41,027 nucleotides of DNA from a virus (Duplodnaviria; Caudoviricetes). Below are positions 1,645 through 39,745 of the stretch, in pieces. The stretch is taken from positions 1-41,027 of the IMG/VR virus record IMGVR_UViG_3300017548_000196. One strand, given 5' to 3'. How positions within the stretch are numbered: position 1 is the stretch's first letter; each line of letters opens with the position of its first letter. The notes under the pieces were generated by a model. It worked only from the letters and a program-made list of their open reading frames with translations, was not told where the DNA came from and made no database searches. The position numbers and the translations under genes are program-made.

Positions 1645-2118
1645 ATGGATGAATTAAAAGTAACACGAGAAAACGCATTGGCTGCACACGCCGAAGCAAA
1701 TCAAAAGGGGAAAGCCCTGCTCGAAAACCTGTTTGGAAAGAAAGTCTTCCAACGCGAAGTGACCGAACGGATTAAAACATTCGACGATGTACTCGACGAA
1801 CTGGGCATATCAGCGGTCGAATTTGCTGCCGCAACCAAAGGTCTATCTCATGACGAAATCGCCTACCGGCAGATAAAACTAATCGTCCAGGCACTCAATG
1901 AAGGCTGGCAACCCGACTGGACCGATAGCGACCGGTACAAGTATTACCCCTGGTTCGACCTCTCATCCGGCCGCGGGCTGTCGTACAACGCTTGCGCTTA
2001 CGGTTATGCGCGCTCGGGTGTCGGCTCCCGCCTTTGCTTCAAAAGCCGTGAGCTGGCCGAGTACGCCGGAACCCAGTTCAAAGACCTTTACGAAGACTAT
2101 TTCCTCATAAGGCCTTAA
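1645..2118 (+). CDS. DGR target (variable) protein, 157 aa
   Basis: Contains VR encoding SGRGLSYNACAYGYARSGVGSRLC. Confidence 0.93.
   Translation: MDELKVTRENALAAHAEANQKGKALLENLFGKKVFQREVTERIKTFDDVLDELGISAVEFAAATKGLSHDEIAYRQIKLIVQALNEGWQPDWTDSDRYKYYPWFDLSSGRGLSYNACAYGYARSGVGSRLCFKSRELAEYAGTQFKDLYEDYFLIRP
1966..2037 (+). repeat. DGR variable repeat (VR)
   Basis: 72-nt ungapped match to 2161-2232; 15 mismatches, all opposite TR adenines. Confidence 0.95.
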
Positions 2119-2334
2119 CACAGCAGGTGGTGCGCCGCCATGGTTGCCGTTCCGTTCGTGTCCAGCCGCAGGCTGTCGTACAACGATTACGATAACGATT
2201 ATACGAACTCGAATGTCAGCTCCCGACTATGCTCACTTCGCGGCGCAGACCTTGCCAGCACGGCAAAAAACAACAGTTTAAACGGGTGCCAGTATCCCAT
2301 TTTGGTAGAGACCGCTCCCAATTAAAGCAAAGGC
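2119..2334 (+). ncRNA. Putative structured DGR template RNA (TR plus flanks)
   Basis: TGCGCCGC 2131-2138 complementary to GCGGCGCA 2240-2247; hairpin TTGCC-AGCAC-GGCAA 2252-2266; exact RNA ends unknown. Confidence 0.65.
2161..2232 (+). repeat. DGR template repeat (TR)
   Basis: tcc agc cgc agg ctg tcg tac aac gat tac gat aac gat tat acg aac tcg aat gtc agc tcc cga cta tgc; rich in AAC/GAT/TAC codons; intergenic, upstream of RT. Confidence 0.95.
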
Positions 2335-3453
2335 ATGAAACGATTAAATAACCTGTACGAAAAAATCACCAGCATCCACAACCTGGAGCTCGCAGACGAT
2401 ATCGCTTGCAAGGGCAAAGCCAACCAATACGGCGTCATCAAACACCGCCAAAACCGCGACATGAATCTGCTCGCCCTCCAAAACATGCTGCTCAATAAGA
2501 CCTACCGCACGTCGCCATACACCACCTTCAAAGTGTATGAGCCCAAAGAGCGCGAAGTCTTCCGACTGCCGTACTTCCCAGATCGCATCTGCCACCACGC
2601 CATTATGAATGTGCTTGAGCCGATCTGGGTCAAAACATTCACGGCCGACACATACAGCTGCATCAAAGGCCGCGGCATCCACAAAGCCAAAGCCAACCTC
2701 AAGCAGTACTTAAAAGATGTGCCTGGCACAACGTATTGCCTCAAGCTCGATATCACCAAGTTTTACCCATCAGTAGACCACGATATCTTAAAAGCCATCC
2801 TACGTCGCAAAATCAAAGACCGCGACCTCCTATGGCTGCTCGATGGCATCATCGACTCCGCTTCCGGATTACCCATCGGCAACTACCTCAGCCAGTACCT
2901 GGCCAATCTTTACCTTACGTACTTCGATCACTGGCTCAAAGAGCGGCAAGGCGTCAAGTACTACCTAAGGTACGCCGACGATATGGTCATCCTGTCATCC
3001 AGCAAGAAGCAACTGCACCAGTTGCTGGCCCGTATCCGCCAGTATCTATCCACCGAGCTGAAACTATCCATCAAAGGCAACTATCAGGTATTCCCGGTCG
3101 CCGCCCGCGGCATCGACTTCGTCGGATACAGGTTCTGGCACACCCACATCCTGTTAAGGAAATCAATTAAGAAGCGCTATGCGCGGATGATGGCTCGCCG
3201 TCCCAACAGGGCATCCATTGCCGCCTATTACGGTTGGGCCAAGCACTGCAATAGCAAAAACCTAATCAGAAAGTTCAATGATCAATTTCAAAGACCTCAA
3301 TATCAAAACCGAGGGCAAGCCGTTTGCCGGTCACAAAATCCGGATGGTCGATTTGCTAAACAAAGAAATCACCGTACGCGACTACAAAATCAAACAAAGC
3401 AAATTCAAGCAAGCCGAGGGGCAAACATGCCTGCATCTATCCCTCGAAGTTGA
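2335..3453 (+). CDS. DGR reverse transcriptase
   Basis: Motifs KGRGIH, LKLDITKFYPSV, GLPIGNYLSQ and YLRYADD; adjacent TR/VR. Confidence 0.95.
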   Translation: MKRLNNLYEKITSIHNLELADDIACKGKANQYGVIKHRQNRDMNLLALQNMLLNKTYRTSPYTTFKVYEPKEREVFRLPYFPDRICHHAIMNVLEPIWVKTFTADTYSCIKGRGIHKAKANLKQYLKDVPGTTYCLKLDITKFYPSVDHDILKAILRRKIKDRDLLWLLDGIIDSASGLPIGNYLSQYLANLYLTYFDHWLKERQGVKYYLRYADDMVILSSSKKQLHQLLARIRQYLSTELKLSIKGNYQVFPVAARGIDFVGYRFWHTHILLRKSIKKRYARMMARRPNRASIAAYYGWAKHCNSKNLIRKFNDQFQRPQYQNRGQAVCRSQNPDGRFAKQRNHRTRLQNQTKQIQASRGANMPASIPRS

Positions 3454-3580
3454 TGGCCAACTACGCGTGGCATTCTGCTCCGGAGCCGTGCTAACGCAGC
3501 AGCTCGAAGCCGTCCCGCGCGATAAATTCCCCTTCCGGGCAACCATCAAAAAATTAAACGACTGGTACGAATTCACATAA
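3278..3580 (+). CDS. Putative DGR accessory protein (non-Avd), 100 aa
   Basis: Starts where the RT core ends; beta-rich, ends FPFRATIKK...YEFT; recalled as similar to small genes following Bacteroidota DGR RTs (unverified). Confidence 0.6.
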   Translation: MINFKDLNIKTEGKPFAGHKIRMVDLLNKEITVRDYKIKQSKFKQAEGQTCLHLSLEVDGQLRVAFCSGAVLTQQLEAVPRDKFPFRATIKKLNDWYEFT

Positions 3581-8124: not shown

Positions 8125-9327
8125 ATGATGAAATCACAACTCAATCTATTCAGTGCCTACCGCAGCACGTTCCACGAGCAAGAAGAGCTCACTATCCGAA
8201 GCATGCAATCATACGGACCGTTGTATGATCATTGGGTATTCGCGTGGAGCGGCGGCAAAGACAGCTCAGCTACACTAACATATATCATTTACTTAATCGA
8301 ATCTGGGCAAATCGTTGCCCCCAAAAAGATTACAGTATTGTTGGCAGATACTCGACTAGAGCTGATGCCCCTTTGGTTAACTGCACAAACGATAATCGAG
8401 CAGCTTCGTGCCCGAGGCATTGAGGTACACATCGTAACGTCAGAACTCGACAATCGGTTCTTCGTCTACATGTTTGGCAGGGGAGTGCCTCCACCATCCA
8501 ACACCTTCCGTTGGTGTACGCCTAAGCTCAAGATTGATCCGATGATGGGCAAGCTACACGATCTGTACGATCACAATGGCGGCAAATTTCTTTTACTTAC
8601 CGGCGTTAGGCAAGGCGAAAGTGCTCAACGTGATGGGCGCATAGCTATGTCGTGCGGAAAGAACGGCGCTGAGTGCGGTCAAGGTTGGTATCAGATTACC
8701 GCCCCGGATGATATCTGCGATAAGCTCGCGCCATTACTTCATTGGCGTGTATGCAGCGTATGGGATTGGCTCAAAGTGTTCGCCCCGTCTGCCAAATACG
8801 GTTCATGGGCCACGGCTGCGATTGCTGATTGCTACGGCGGCGATGCCGCCGAAGAAAAGAATGCGTGTACCGGTTGTGTCGGTTGCAATCTCGCCAGCAA
8901 AGACCTTTCGTTAATGCTCGTTTGCCAGCTGGCGGACTGGGAATACCTTTCGCCATTGTTCCGCCTCAGGCAAATTTATGCCGAACTCAAGAAGCCCCAG
9001 AACCGTCTTCGTAAAACAGGACTGCAAACCAAGAAAGACGGATCATTCGCAAAGAATCAAAACCGCATGGGTCCGCTCACGTTCGATGCTCGTTTGTGGG
9101 GATTAGGTCAAGTTCTGGACATTCAAAACGAGATCAATGACGCGGCGGCCGCTACGGACCGCCCGACCATCGACTTAATCAATTCGGAAGAAGAAGCCCG
9201 GATACGGCAGTTGGTTGACGACGGAACATGGCCACACGGATGGTCCGGAGATGAGCAACGCGCTGACGAGTTCTTTTTACAAACCTACGCGGATGGTTCC
9301 ACCCAGTACGCACTATTTGGAGAATAA
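8125..9327 (+). CDS. PAPS reductase family protein (DndC-like)
   Basis: PP-loop WSGGKDSS, ADT, PPPSNTFRWCT..LKIDP, GVRQGES..R, TGCVGC. Confidence 0.85.
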   Translation: MMKSQLNLFSAYRSTFHEQEELTIRSMQSYGPLYDHWVFAWSGGKDSSATLTYIIYLIESGQIVAPKKITVLLADTRLELMPLWLTAQTIIEQLRARGIEVHIVTSELDNRFFVYMFGRGVPPPSNTFRWCTPKLKIDPMMGKLHDLYDHNGGKFLLLTGVRQGESAQRDGRIAMSCGKNGAECGQGWYQITAPDDICDKLAPLLHWRVCSVWDWLKVFAPSAKYGSWATAAIADCYGGDAAEEKNACTGCVGCNLASKDLSLMLVCQLADWEYLSPLFRLRQIYAELKKPQNRLRKTGLQTKKDGSFAKNQNRMGPLTFDARLWGLGQVLDIQNEINDAAAATDRPTIDLINSEEEARIRQLVDDGTWPHGWSGDEQRADEFFLQTYADGSTQYALFGE

Positions 9328-12868: not shown

Positions 12869-12958
12869 CGATTTTCGTGCACTTTTACCACCACATATTT
12901 GGGAGAAAGGGAAAGCATCATATTTCGGACCGCGGTCGCACCCAACAAATTCACCTAA

Positions 12959-12994
12959 AATAAATACCATATTTTCAACTTTTTAGGTTGAAAA
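12959..12994. promoter_or_regulatory. Operator-like site 1 (TTTTCA-N11-TGAAAA)
   Basis: 31/36 identical to 13588-13623. Confidence 0.65.
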
Positions 12995-13041
12995 TCAGCC
13001 ACAAAACCCCTATATTAGTGTCATCATTTAACATTAGTCAG

Positions 13042-13587
13042 ATGATCGTTCTTATAGATATCAAAAAACCCATGCTCCGCGAATACCTGCATTCGCAGTT
13101 CGCTTATGAAAGCGAAGCATTCAGCGTATTCCGTCACAACACATTTGGCAAGGCCCTATGTGCAATGGTGAGCAAATCAGACCTGCCGGTCAAGCATCCC
13201 CAGTCAGACCAGACCGTCCGCATCCGGCTCCCCAATACCAAGTCCATCCGGAGCCACCGCAATCACTTCCTGTATTACACCACCGAAGACCAGCTCAAGC
13301 TAAACGACCTGTTAGAGGTCCGATTCGAAATAGACTTTGAGTCCTACTACCAGGCAGGCATCCGGCTGGGCATGATGCAAAAAGATGTCATCCACAATTT
13401 CATCGTACAGCGTAAATTGGTATCGATGATTGGCGATGTCGAAACGCTTAAGAAAAGGCAGTACCGCAAAGAGAAAAACGCCATCGAAAAGGTGGCAAAC
13501 CACCTGCTCCAGAAGATTCACTACAGGGATAGCATCATCAAAAAGACTTTACAAACGGCTTATCGGCTCAATGCCAGTCCGTTGTAG
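13042..13587 (+). CDS. Hypothetical basic protein, candidate late-gene regulator (ATG 13042 preferred over TTG 12988)
   Basis: Between the ori-like region and head genes, flanked by operator-like repeats; function inferred from position only. Confidence 0.55.
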   Translation: MIVLIDIKKPMLREYLHSQFAYESEAFSVFRHNTFGKALCAMVSKSDLPVKHPQSDQTVRIRLPNTKSIRSHRNHFLYYTTEDQLKLNDLLEVRFEIDFESYYQAGIRLGMMQKDVIHNFIVQRKLVSMIGDVETLKKRQYRKEKNAIEKVANHLLQKIHYRDSIIKKTLQTAYRLNASPL

Positions 13588-13623
13588 AATAAATACCCGG
13601 TTTTCAACTTTTTAACTTGAAAA
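13588..13623. promoter_or_regulatory. Operator-like site 2 (TTTTCA-N11-TGAAAA)
   Basis: Direct repeat of 12959-12994. Confidence 0.65.
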
Positions 13624-13629
13624 ACAGTC

Positions 13630-14019
13630 ATGAAACAACGCATCAATATCGTTTGCTCGCTCAAATTCACCAAACTGGCCGACGTCGTCCGATACATCGA
13701 TAACCACGACGGAACCGCCACGCTTGAAACCAGCCAGCTCACCACACTGCCTATTTACCCTGGCGGCGCCCGGATGACCGTCTCGGTCGACCATATAGAC
13801 GGTGTCGAGCAATTCTCCACGCAGATCACCGCCCGGCTCAAAGAAATCATCCCAACCAGGTGCGTCGGTATACTCGTGGTCGAAGTTTGCGACGACGCCA
13901 CCTATATAATAGGCACCGACGATCTTCCCGTCCGCTTCCAAACCACCTATGCAACCACCTCAAAAAACCTGCAAATCTCTCACGAAAACAATCATTTTCC
14001 GCTTGTAATGGCCGTTTAG
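13630..14019 (+). CDS. Hypothetical phage protein (possibly structural)
   Basis: 129-aa beta-rich ORF upstream of protease. Confidence 0.65.
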   Translation: MKQRINIVCSLKFTKLADVVRYIDNHDGTATLETSQLTTLPIYPGGARMTVSVDHIDGVEQFSTQITARLKEIIPTRCVGILVVEVCDDATYIIGTDDLPVRFQTTYATTSKNLQISHENNHFPLVMAV

Positions 14020-17314: not shown

Positions 17315-17335
17315 TTAGCCGTTGCATTTCCCCCG

Positions 17336-17368
17336 ACCCCGCGGTTCATCCATGGCCGCGGGGTTTTT
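17336..17368 (+). terminator. Intrinsic terminator
   Basis: ACCCCGCGG-N11-CCGCGGGGT followed by TTTT. Confidence 0.75.
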
Positions 17369-17393
17369 ATCCAATCACCAAAAACAAAACACC

Positions 17394-18347
17394 ATGGCAA
17401 CTCCAAAAAAAGTCACAGCAAAAAAGGCGACCAAAGCCACCACCAAAATAACCACCGATGAAACCAAACAAGAAGCAACTGCCCATATCGATGGCAACGA
17501 TACTGGAGCAACAGCAACCCTCGCAAAGACTAATAGCAAACCTACCGGCTCACCCGGTTCAATCGAAGAGCAAGCCATCACGGTCCTTATCCCATACCTC
17601 GCCAGTGCCGCCGCGGGCGACGAGCTGAAGTACGCATTGCGTGCCTGGGAGAAGAACTACGAAGGCCCAATCAAAGTCGTCGTAGTGGGCGATAAAGAAG
17701 ATTGGTTTTCCAAAGAAATCACGCACCTGCCTTTGGAAGTGCATACCATCCCCGAAGATTGCGGATGCCCCAACCCCAAACAAATCCGTAACCCGCAGGC
17801 CGACGTGGCTCACAAGCTGCTGTATGCCGTCACCAGCGGCGCGGTCGATGGCGAATTCATTCTCACCAATGATGATATCTTCCTGTTGGGCCCCACTACG
17901 CTGAGCGATCTCAAGCAACCCAAAATTTTGGGCAACTTGGCAGACATTACCAAAAAAGGACTGTATGCCGACAACGCCCGGCGTACCGCGGCGATGCTCA
18001 AATCGGCTGGAAAGGAAACGCTCAACTACGGCACGCACACCCCGATGGTGCTCGATTCGACCAATCTGGCAGACACCATCCGCGGGTACCAAGCCGACGA
18101 AAAAGGCATTCTGCTCACGTCCGCCTACTACAACCATCACCAGCCCGAGCCACGTGGCCTGATTAAGCTGAATGGTGGCTCCACCGGAACGATACTGTTG
18201 TCGGTGTATTCAGACACTCCGCCCACGGATATCGTGCTGAACGCCTTCAAACGGCGCAAATACCTCAATTGCAATTCCAAAGGATGGAAGGCCATCAGTT
18301 GGGTATTCAAATCCGAGTTCCCCGATAAGTCCCGATTCGAAAAATAG
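17394..18347 (+). CDS. Stealth-like (CR2) / GT-A-fold sugar(-phosphate) transferase-like protein; start revised to 17394
   Basis: DELKYALRAWEKN..KVVVVGD..W and EFILTNDDIFL resemble Stealth CR2 (ELRYSLRS...FLYFNDD); Lys/Thr-rich low-complexity N-terminus. Confidence 0.65.
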   Translation: MATPKKVTAKKATKATTKITTDETKQEATAHIDGNDTGATATLAKTNSKPTGSPGSIEEQAITVLIPYLASAAAGDELKYALRAWEKNYEGPIKVVVVGDKEDWFSKEITHLPLEVHTIPEDCGCPNPKQIRNPQADVAHKLLYAVTSGAVDGEFILTNDDIFLLGPTTLSDLKQPKILGNLADITKKGLYADNARRTAAMLKSAGKETLNYGTHTPMVLDSTNLADTIRGYQADEKGILLTSAYYNHHQPEPRGLIKLNGGSTGTILLSVYSDTPPTDIVLNAFKRRKYLNCNSKGWKAISWVFKSEFPDKSRFEK

Positions 18348-37807: not shown

Positions 37808-39745
37808 ATGTTACAACCGCAATTCAATAAATACCCGAAACCAACGGATTTAAACAGCCTTTACTTTTTGGCACAGCAGGCTTTTGAAGCCGGATTCCGT
37901 GGTACCACGTTCATAGAACTGGTGAACTATATTGTCGATTTCCTTCCAGAGCGACTTGCACAATTCCAGATTCTCGATGTAGGTCCGTCCGATTCGCCCG
38001 TAGCGACCGATGATATTACCCGGACATATCAACCAACGGAAAGTGGTACGTATGTCAATTTTTTAGACAGTGACAACAATTCTTTGGAAGTGGATTTGAC
38101 TAATGGTTTTGTTACTATCACTGGGAATGCGGTTGATGGGTTTAAGACCGTAACGACCCCCATCAACCTAGCGGGATACCTCCAGACATCGGAGATAATC
38201 AAGACGGCGATTGGATTCCGGATATCCCTAGCTGACCCGGACAGCTTCGTGCTTAATTCCAGAGTGGTAATAGCCGATGGAACGATAATAGGTGACGGTT
38301 CTGGTAATTACGTTAGGACCCCGTTTATAGCCATAGACGGCGGTAAGGATGTAGTGATGACCCGGGGCATCAATACGGCACAGTCGATAGCTTTCTATTC
38401 ATCAGCAAACACCGGTGACTGGATTTCCAGCATAAGCGGCGGACCCGCGCCCACGACCACGATAACTCCGCCACCGGGCACCACGCACATGATGACCAAC
38501 CCTTCGACGCAAAGCTCGACAAGGGCGGCGGATATAGCGGCATTTGGCATCTACCAAGACGGGGAGCCAGTGATAGGCACGATAGAAGGGGTAAGTCTGT
38601 TGGCTAAGGGGTTAAGTAGTAAGACAGATATAATAACGCAACCGTCCATCCTGTACAGGAATGATAGCGAGAACATCTATTCGGTCGGGCAGGTACAAGA
38701 TGACATGTACGTATTCTCTTCGGGGGCGTTAGGAGTGGGCGCCAGTAGGCCAATTACCGATTATTCAATGGCCCGTGTGCCAATTGACCGCAGTAAGGGC
38801 ACGGAAGTGTCATGGCTACGACTGGCTACGCCCGGAACATTTGGCTTTTTCTTCGACGCCAACCACAGGCCGATATCCGGTATAACCGGCCTCAATTCCG
38901 AGCCTACGGGTACGGCAGCTATTCCAGAAGGCGCGGAGTGGCTATATGTGAACGTGTCTCAACAACCACTCGCCAGGGACAAGCAGAAGAACCAGATGAC
39001 CATCGTCTACGGAGACACCATTCCTACGGAGCATATCCCGCAACGTTCACTATCTGCGGTAGGCAGCACACTCATCTCTCATCCTTACTCGGGCAAGACG
39101 GTAGTCGCCATCGGTGACAGTATAACCACATATGAGCGAATCGAGCCGGATACACAGAACACCGATAGCAATTACGTGGTCAGGATGTGCAGCGAGGTCG
39201 GTGCATTGCTTCTAGAAAACTATTCGATAGGAGGTAGCACGATAAGCCAGAGATCGTCAGACCCGACTGGCCGCAATCCAATCAGCATCCGCTATGTTGA
39301 TATGCGCGATGACGCAGATTTGATTATTGTGTCGGCAGGAACTAACGACTGCACACACGCATGGACGCCGTTGGGGGCTTTCGAGGATTCAACGGTTAAT
39401 ACCTTTTATGGGGCAATGCATGTGCTTTGTGAAGGCCTTAAAGAGAAATACGTAGGTGGCCAAATAATATTTTTAACGCCAATAAGGAGATACCACGCTC
39501 CTGCGGGTATGACGACACCCACATCGCCCAACGCCAACGGTGAGACGCCACAGCAATATGTCGATGCAATCATTGAGGTGTGCAACTACTACGGCATACC
39601 GGTTCTTGACAATTACCGTACATGTATCCTGAATCCTTTTATTTCCGAATACAGAAGTGAGTATATGAGTGACGGTACCCACCCGAACGCGGCCGGACAT
39701 ATTATCATGAAGGATAGGCTTGTTAACTTTTTAAGGCAGTTGTGA
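37808..39745 (+). CDS. Tail spike / receptor-binding protein with C-terminal SGNH (GDSL) hydrolase
   Basis: Blocks GDSIT, GGST, GTND, DGTHPN; last gene of tail module. Confidence 0.8.
   Translation: MLQPQFNKYPKPTDLNSLYFLAQQAFEAGFRGTTFIELVNYIVDFLPERLAQFQILDVGPSDSPVATDDITRTYQPTESGTYVNFLDSDNNSLEVDLTNGFVTITGNAVDGFKTVTTPINLAGYLQTSEIIKTAIGFRISLADPDSFVLNSRVVIADGTIIGDGSGNYVRTPFIAIDGGKDVVMTRGINTAQSIAFYSSANTGDWISSISGGPAPTTTITPPPGTTHMMTNPSTQSSTRAADIAAFGIYQDGEPVIGTIEGVSLLAKGLSSKTDIITQPSILYRNDSENIYSVGQVQDDMYVFSSGALGVGASRPITDYSMARVPIDRSKGTEVSWLRLATPGTFGFFFDANHRPISGITGLNSEPTGTAAIPEGAEWLYVNVSQQPLARDKQKNQMTIVYGDTIPTEHIPQRSLSAVGSTLISHPYSGKTVVAIGDSITTYERIEPDTQNTDSNYVVRMCSEVGALLLENYSIGGSTISQRSSDPTGRNPISIRYVDMRDDADLIIVSAGTNDCTHAWTPLGAFEDSTVNTFYGAMHVLCEGLKEKYVGGQIIFLTPIRRYHAPAGMTTPTSPNANGETPQQYVDAIIEVCNYYGIPVLDNYRTCILNPFISEYRSEYMSDGTHPNAAGHIIMKDRLVNFLRQL

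Follow-up and report, generated by a model that had tools for sequence, protein, structure and literature searches.

We describe a diversity-generating retroelement (DGR) whose target is a small, probably intracellular phage protein with a predicted helical and dimeric architecture. The element was found in the 41,027-nt IMG/VR record IMGVR_UViG_3300017548_000196 (positions 1 to 41,027), the whole of which is referred to here as the window. The variable regions of DGRs are regarded as lying nearly always in C-terminal C-type lectin (CLec) folds and, in phages, in tail fibres. We tentatively propose, at a little under an even chance, that the loops diversified by this DGR form a composite surface of a cytoplasmic dimer, with which the protein binds a rapidly changing host protein. 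The elements that we consider new are the predicted homodimer with both variable repeats at its axis, the tandem paralogues of the target, and the differences between paralogue forms at the predicted interface helix.

The target gene (1645..2118, plus strand, as are all features of the element) encodes 157 residues and represents the long form of its family, which consists of an N-terminal helical hairpin and a helical core. Its variable repeat (VR, 1966..2038) covers codons 108-131, leaving 26 more codons (132-157), as an earlier sequence-only reading of this DNA had counted. The gene is followed by the template repeat (TR, 2161..2233), which comprises 73 nt with 20 adenines, by the DGR reverse transcriptase (RT, 2335..3453; 372 aa with a YADD motif, RVT_1 E 2e-21, phrog_1423 E 2.4e-130) and by the gene of a 100-aa basic protein (3278..3580; phrog_19665), a candidate RT accessory factor. 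Comparison of VR and TR over the 73 nt demonstrated that 53/53 non-adenine TR positions are identical while 15 of the 20 TR adenines differ, and an intact RT adjoins the TR, starting 101 nt after the TR end. The element is beyond doubt a diversity-generating retroelement. Its 20 TR adenines give about 4e10 possible protein variants. A Pfam analysis of the 49 ORFs of the window returned no match to Avd, and only 216 nt separate the target stop from the RT start. The RT frame overlaps the 100-aa gene by 176 nt (3278-3453), as compared to about 10 nt in most relatives; the long overlap is common to the window, its complete relative G001 and locus L193. Contigs of four public runs carry a VR identical to that of the window; the window may derive from some of these contigs, and rare variants are lost in contig assembly.

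The sequence-only reading had also spotted no second VR copy in the tail genes. A search of the whole 41,027-nt record on both strands with the TR adenines masked bore this out, as the second-best match reached only 27/53, leaving no tail VR. G001 is a 100%-complete provirus that is collinear with the window and carries two tandem targets. Since BLAST of the window TR against G001 gave no match, the G001 search used that genome's own TR, which matches only those two targets (40/40, next best 23/40). With an adenine-specific VR in the 157-aa ORF and no remote tail VR in either genome, the view that the DGR target is not the tail spike stands. The supposed spike (37808-39745; phrog_5240) is a tail fibre gene with a SGNH/GDSL hydrolase domain, possibly a capsule de-acetylase, and has no VR.

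Comparison with G001, which is about 1.8 kb longer at the left end, identifies the record as a provirus lacking that segment. Genes of the replication side occupy its left part; head and tail genes extend from the middle to the right, and a minus-strand integrase closes the record. The target gene was confirmed to lie upstream of a 997-aa primase/helicase-like gene and 35.7 kb from the tail fibre gene in the linear record; 'primase' is our label for a gene that matched only weak DUF5906 and PHROGs without assigned function. In the excised circle the tail gene and the target gene would be only about 4.7 kb apart, across the oppositely oriented integrase. Hydropathy agreed with the claim that the protein has neither signal peptide nor transmembrane (TM) segment: no hydrophobic N-terminus was detected (KD10 maximum 0.08, against 2.99 for the lipoprotein-like ORF1 of the window) and no TM-like stretch (KD19 maximum 0.93), and the pI is 5.5. 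Gene position and hydropathy together suggest an early, cytoplasmic protein. The gene order of the window recurs in L193, a Parapedobacter MAG, which hints at a Sphingobacteriaceae host.

Several other features of the window were recorded. A DUF4406/nucleoside 2-deoxyribosyltransferase-like gene (958-1533) lies upstream of the target; it falls inside the examined flank in 10 of 79 GTDB loci and is not fixed to the cassette. A PAPS-reductase-family gene occupies 8125-9327, and a gene among the head genes (17322-18347) has a weak Stealth CR2 match. Just before the head genes, a 52-nt AT-rich direct repeat (12956-13007 and 13585-13636, 81% identical) flanks a 199-aa ORF; the repeats are possibly late promoters. 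A promoter and terminator scan performed at chance level.

In an effort to place the target among known proteins, we compared it with phage, genomic and functional collections. The target belongs to phrog_11581 (E 6e-33), a PHROG without functional annotation. Relatives at E<=0.001 numbered 1,456 among 1,550 candidates, and a family profile search returned 5,293 clusters at 50% identity. TM-like stretches were detected in 3/308 members and a hydrophobic N-terminus in 1/308. PADLOC (defence systems), NCBIfam and Pfam gave no match that assigns the target a function, no Pfam family was matched by more than one of 60 members, and a PDB sequence search with the family profile gave a best E of 0.086 to an unrelated protein. 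Within the loci examined, members occur only in phages and prophages of Bacteroidota.

Analysis of 79 GTDB loci, chosen by the target, nearly all titled Bacteroidota and including Flavobacterium, Chryseobacterium and Epilithonimonas isolates, identified an RT just downstream in 62, no RT despite room in 13 and truncation in 4. Within the 62 cassettes, 140 of the 142 members upstream of RTs have an adenine-specific VR. Members within 2.5 kb number one in 6 cassettes, two in 44, three in 8, four in 3 and five in 1; 2-5 tandem paralogues are therefore found in 56/62 cassettes, and the single target of the window is a minority state. The VR is followed by a median of 25 codons in 138 relatives and lies at about three quarters of the length, as in the window. 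The target or targets, TR, RT and 100-aa gene stay together, while flanking genes vary widely; because no flanking gene is conserved across cassettes, the context names no binding target. The 34 recurring neighbour families include replication initiators, exonucleases, HNH nucleases, a methyltransferase and a sliding clamp, and neighbours also include PAPS-reductase genes as well as terminase and head/neck genes, the last two kinds usually on the opposite strand. Among 79 viral loci, an RT was present in the examined flank in only 16, many of the others being longer gut-type members. Three pairs of related gut phage members (L049/L050, L054/L055 and L056/L059) have identical loops and no RT nearby, and their loops are possibly no longer diversified. 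One gut-type member (L053:5794-6516) ends in GSRLCFIPA-stop like a CLec3 tail VR and lies directly before a TR and RT; this arrangement stems either from a chimeric assembly spanning the VR repeat or from genuine recombination through the VR.

A non-tail DGR target is not unprecedented. Roux et al. 2021 (PMC8144416) catalogued cluster PC_00007 as 'Phage_other' with at least 1,694 occurrences, and such targets have been discussed for Quimbyvirus and other gut prophages. PC_00007 is the same family as judged by eye rather than by alignment: its targets 2576065990, 2576065991 and 2585424986 carry ALNEGW..PDW..YPWF..GSRL, and the window target shares the core motifs and family HMM of PC_00007/phrog_11581. 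Among 15 rows listed for the cluster, the VR lies at 0.64-0.82 of the length, with tandem targets beside the RT. PhANNs called 1.6% of PC_00007 structural, and Roux et al. judged it non-structural or unknown, with the caveats that clusters of this kind could be structural proteins that escaped recognition and that uncharacterised VR domains are expected to be new C-Lec variants. The portion of that report available to us gives no fold, oligomer or function for PC_00007, whereas the models presented below are helical and dimeric. Non-tail DGR targets are thus known, and a fold or function for this one was not found in print: the literature searched, with subscription journals mostly outside it, contained no paper on the family's fold or function and no virion proteomics detecting the target.

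Distal second VRs have also been described in gut prophages. Dahlman-type work on these prophages (PMC12629997) reports that in four species a second, distal VR lies close to counter-defence genes. Benler et al. 2021 (PMC8008677) located a second Quimbyvirus target among methyltransferases and a tRNA ligase, called this remote target a C-type lectin and inferred a conflict role; judging from this neighbourhood, Quimbyvirus ORF80/84 may belong to the family described here. A 2026 preprint on the gut virome (10.64898/2026.03.05.709809), in the part available to us, saw none of the known anti-defence proteins among DGR targets. The remote target of LoVEphage (MW660583.1:33613-34197) is a homologue of the window target (33% over 98%) and sits among methyltransferase, PAPS reductase and RtcB genes. 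Over 113 nt, it differs from the TR of the tail DGR at 19 adenines and at no other position. In LoVEphage the homologue is only the second target of a DGR that acts on the tail, lies 15 kb away and has a 113-nt repeat, whereas the window protein is a sole target with a dedicated, adjacent 73-nt TR.

The BPP-1 DGR (mtd-avd-TR-brt) shares with the window, by the mechanism established in the literature, TR-templated adenine-specific mutagenesis and a dedicated RT. In BPP-1, the DGR acts on the trimeric CLec tip of the tail fibre, the VR is C-terminal and Avd is present. Neither such a target, nor a C-terminal VR, nor Avd is found in the window. Wu et al. 2018 (PMC5758913) described CLec3 VRs that end in GSRLCF and Lineage 3 DGRs without Avd; the window has in common with these the VR end GSRLC(F), the lack of avd and the occurrence in Bacteroidota phages. 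The CLec3 VRs shown there, however, end 3-6 residues before the stop of tail-type proteins, whereas 26 codons follow in the window and the domain is predicted to be helical. Neither ALNEGW nor any of three NEGWxP variants turned up in the portion of the Wu et al. supplement available to us.

To model the fold, AlphaFold2 was run on 119 close sequences (pLDDT 81) and on 148 diverse sequences (pLDDT 91.2, pTM 0.81). Both models contain helices at 8-17, 20-30, 32-35, 39-42, 46-53, 57-63, 69-85, 135-144 and 146-153, which amounts to nine helices with no strand of three or more residues and with single bridges at 100 and 132. The VR was modelled as a loop, with block mean pLDDT of 69-81 in the better model, below that of the core. 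A CLec fold is defined by two helices and five strands, the first and last strands being paired; the predicted topology of the target is not that of a CLec. The sequence-only reading had suggested a minimal CLec fold with GSRLC as its terminal GFR-like strand. The motif itself does end CLec3 VRs, but both models are helical and without CLec topology, and the similarity to CLec3 tails is confined to the VR: hhalign to the CLec3-type tail of LoVEphage aligned 28 VR columns only, and PHROG tail matches of gut members span only about 40-45 VR residues.

Structure searches with these models gave no significant match to solved proteins. Foldseek against the PDB returned no match at E<=0.001 for either model, an absence that does not prove a new fold, and a VIA search reached a best Z of 3.8-3.9 with 0/48,161 chains at Z>=5; no CLec domain was among the structural matches listed by either method. 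The top VIA row, an SSV19 tail chain with an rmsd of 3.7-3.8 over 68 residues, was taken as noise. In BFVD, 7 matches at E<=0.001 were all uncharacterised phage proteins, including crAss-like ones. A single viral protein, L079, has the same scaffold without a GSRL-type loop (hhalign 97%, E 9e-12), and a search from it for further VR-less relatives returned only L079 itself. Because the CLec3 similarity stops at the VR, the L079 scaffold lacks the loop and the BFVD neighbours are phage proteins, we infer that the VR may have been grafted into an older helical phage domain.

Prediction with two copies of the target scored 0.63, as compared to 0.00 for the best of three controls, and the dimer runs agreed in at least 89% of contacts with pLDDT of at least 81. 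The mark used for a dimer was reached by 20/30 solved one-chain pairs and 1/23 solved single chains, counts that hold roughly for the alignment used. The target is predicted to be a homodimer, a prediction that speaks for binding without demonstrating it. The predicted interface comprises residues 70-71, 74-75, 78, 89-95, 101-109, 116, 118, 122-129 and 152-155 and is lined by the conserved W88, P90, W92, F104 and R129, of which the near-invariant R129 contacts D70 of the other copy. Across the interface, residues 123-126 touch 101-105 and 125-126 of the partner copy, and these interface contacts of VR residues would place both VRs at the two-fold axis. An inter-subunit strand pair is possible in the predicted dimer, and it does not amount to CLec topology.

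Paralogue forms were compared in 160 members from the GTDB loci, comprising 85 long and 64 short forms with 11 intermediates left out. Long forms mostly have D70, E71, Y74, R/K75 and K78, short forms have A70, I/M/L71, H74, A/Y75 and V/I78, and positions 72-73 are common to both. A long and a short form occur together in 49/77 loci, and natural long-short fusions exist (P0121, P0122, P0157, P0166 and P0194). These differences at the predicted interface helix suggest combinatorial heterodimers, and they also fit homodimers that avoid each other. The window phage has one paralogue, so a heterodimer step does not apply to it.

The composition of 138 VRs was then analysed at the positions of TR adenines, where G was read 1,039 times, A 848, T 658 and C 304. 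AAC codons gave Tyr in 84/372 cases where about 26 were expected, Cys in 13 against 31 and Pro in 0 against 4, and TAC was kept as Tyr in 132/218 against 65; the Tyr expectation is rough, with pooled substitution rates, loci that are not independent and a possible contribution of RT context bias. Amino-acid use at the variable codons is non-random. Tyr enrichment is typical of protein-binding surfaces. Although the TR has adenines in the codons of G127 and R129, these two positions hardly vary among VRs (AGC to Gly in 143/165, CAC to Arg in 106/107), which may reflect selection or the edge of cDNA integration.

The 100-aa gene follows the RT in 54/60 target-selected cassettes with room for it; in loci chosen by the 100-aa gene and not dereplicated, the RT abuts in 75/80 and lies further upstream in the other 5. 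In LoVEphage the 100-aa family domain is joined to an RT fragment, and in vir525 a gene of this family follows an RT that is preceded by a tail gene. Because of this fusion and this gene order, the 100-aa gene tracks the RT and not the target. The LoVEphage DGR RT region (L082:7565-9519) is annotated as several ORFs, the last with the 100-aa family domain, and recalls the frameshifted RT described for Quimbyvirus. The 100-aa protein is a candidate substitute for Avd in retrohoming. An Atlas lead pointed to PF17427, which is phi29-SSB-like (44% share, score 0.93); neither PF17427 nor any other significant Pfam match was found in 27 homologues, a PDB sequence search gave no match of value, the Atlas contained no structure for it, and an SSB/OB identity is a lead only.

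The TR is flanked by sequences that probably act at the RNA level. The 5' flank (2126..2138) is predicted to pair with 2240-2251 in a long-range stem enclosing the TR, and the 3' flank (2240..2266) holds this stem partner and a TTGCC-N5-GGCAA hairpin (2252-2266), followed by an A run. Across 61 loci, flanks paired with their own partner averaged -20.6 kcal/mol, versus -15.0 (sd 4.6) for shuffled and -16.6 (sd 4.3) for foreign flanks, and by eye the stem arms change together in relatives. The whole TR region was no more stable than its shuffles (z -0.01). Stem, hairpin and A run are likely the DGR RNA core.

Under the proposal of a cytoplasmic dimer with a diversified surface, the DGR would rewrite the adenine-templated positions of the 24-codon loop by mutagenic retrohoming as established for DGRs, with the 100-aa protein probably assisting in place of Avd. 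The all-helical dimer would set both variable loops at the two-fold axis, with the 123-127 strand at the 3' end of one VR packing on 101-105 of the other copy and the R129-D70 contact alongside. In the commoner cassettes with two genes, a long chain would join a short one, and two independently mutated loops would form one site. During infection or induction, the resulting variable surface would likely bind a host protein inside the cell that itself changes, in all likelihood one that serves in defence or regulation. The intracellular binding role proposed by the sequence-only reading is plausible, and a non-structural role is supported by the replication, methyltransferase and recombination neighbours, the PhANNs result and the few TM-like members. 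The structural-protein caveat of Roux et al., the C-type lectin call of Benler et al. and the low pLDDT of the VR count against this reading, as do the preprint result on anti-defence proteins, the lack of a conserved flanking gene and the lack of a database match that assigns a function. A more elaborate version, in which a helical scaffold captured a DGR loop, paired long and short chains form an antibody-like combinatorial site against host immune proteins and the RT-linked protein replaces Avd, seems doubtful to us.

Six variable codons (116, 118, 122, 123, 125 and 127) lie within the predicted dimer interface, which fits a self/non-self code as well. In such a code the VR would set subunit pairing and a phage would recognise or poison the copies of related phages with no host partner, leading to superinfection exclusion, lysis-lysogeny decisions or inter-phage conflict. 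The paralogue classes that differ at interface residues and the restriction of the family, within the loci examined, to phages and prophages of Bacteroidota are consistent with this code. We nevertheless consider it unlikely: the closest VR contacts (123-127 with 101-105) appear to run in an antiparallel backbone register tolerant of side-chain change, variable codons 114, 115, 117 and 119-121 fall outside the listed interface, and Tyr enrichment suits an exposed binding surface. Small oligomeric phage proteins such as Tad1, Tad2 and Acb2 sequester signals at subunit interfaces. With this precedent, and with conserved W88, P90, W92, F104 and R129 lining the predicted interface, the ligand of the dimer could be a nucleic acid or a small molecule, such as an immune signal nucleotide in a pocket between the subunits, and the DGR would then retune ligand specificity; about 4e10 variants far exceed the diversity of signal molecules, and an acidic protein of pI 5.5 argues against DNA binding, making this quite improbable.

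Diversification could also be incidental, the gene having captured a tail-type VR and hitch-hiking on the RT without benefit, as the scaffold without a GSRL-type VR (L079) and the resemblance of gut members' VRs to CLec3 tail VRs might indicate. This is equally improbable in our estimate, given that 62/79 loci keep a dedicated TR-RT and 56 have 2-5 targeted paralogues, that amino-acid use at variable codons is non-random and that the window phage and G001 have no other target. Somewhat less remote, though still less likely than a self/non-self code, is a minor virion component or an ejected protein that has escaped recognition and whose VR contacts the host envelope or an entry factor. One LoVEphage TR templates both a gene of this family and a tail-collar fibre, in some cassettes terminase or head genes come directly afterwards, and Roux et al. 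2021 (PMC8144416) allow for unrecognised structural proteins. In the window and in LoVEphage, by contrast, the gene belongs to a replication-side operon, the sizes and fusions seen include no tail-attachment domain, and PhANNs called so few members of the same cluster structural (PMC8144416).

This large family points to a second DGR scaffold, one that tolerates on the order of 1e10 variants, is dimeric by prediction and is probably intracellular. With a small soluble protein and cultured hosts, the role of non-structural phage DGR targets becomes testable. The family also offers a compact natural library scaffold, together with a candidate helper for Avd-less retrohoming.
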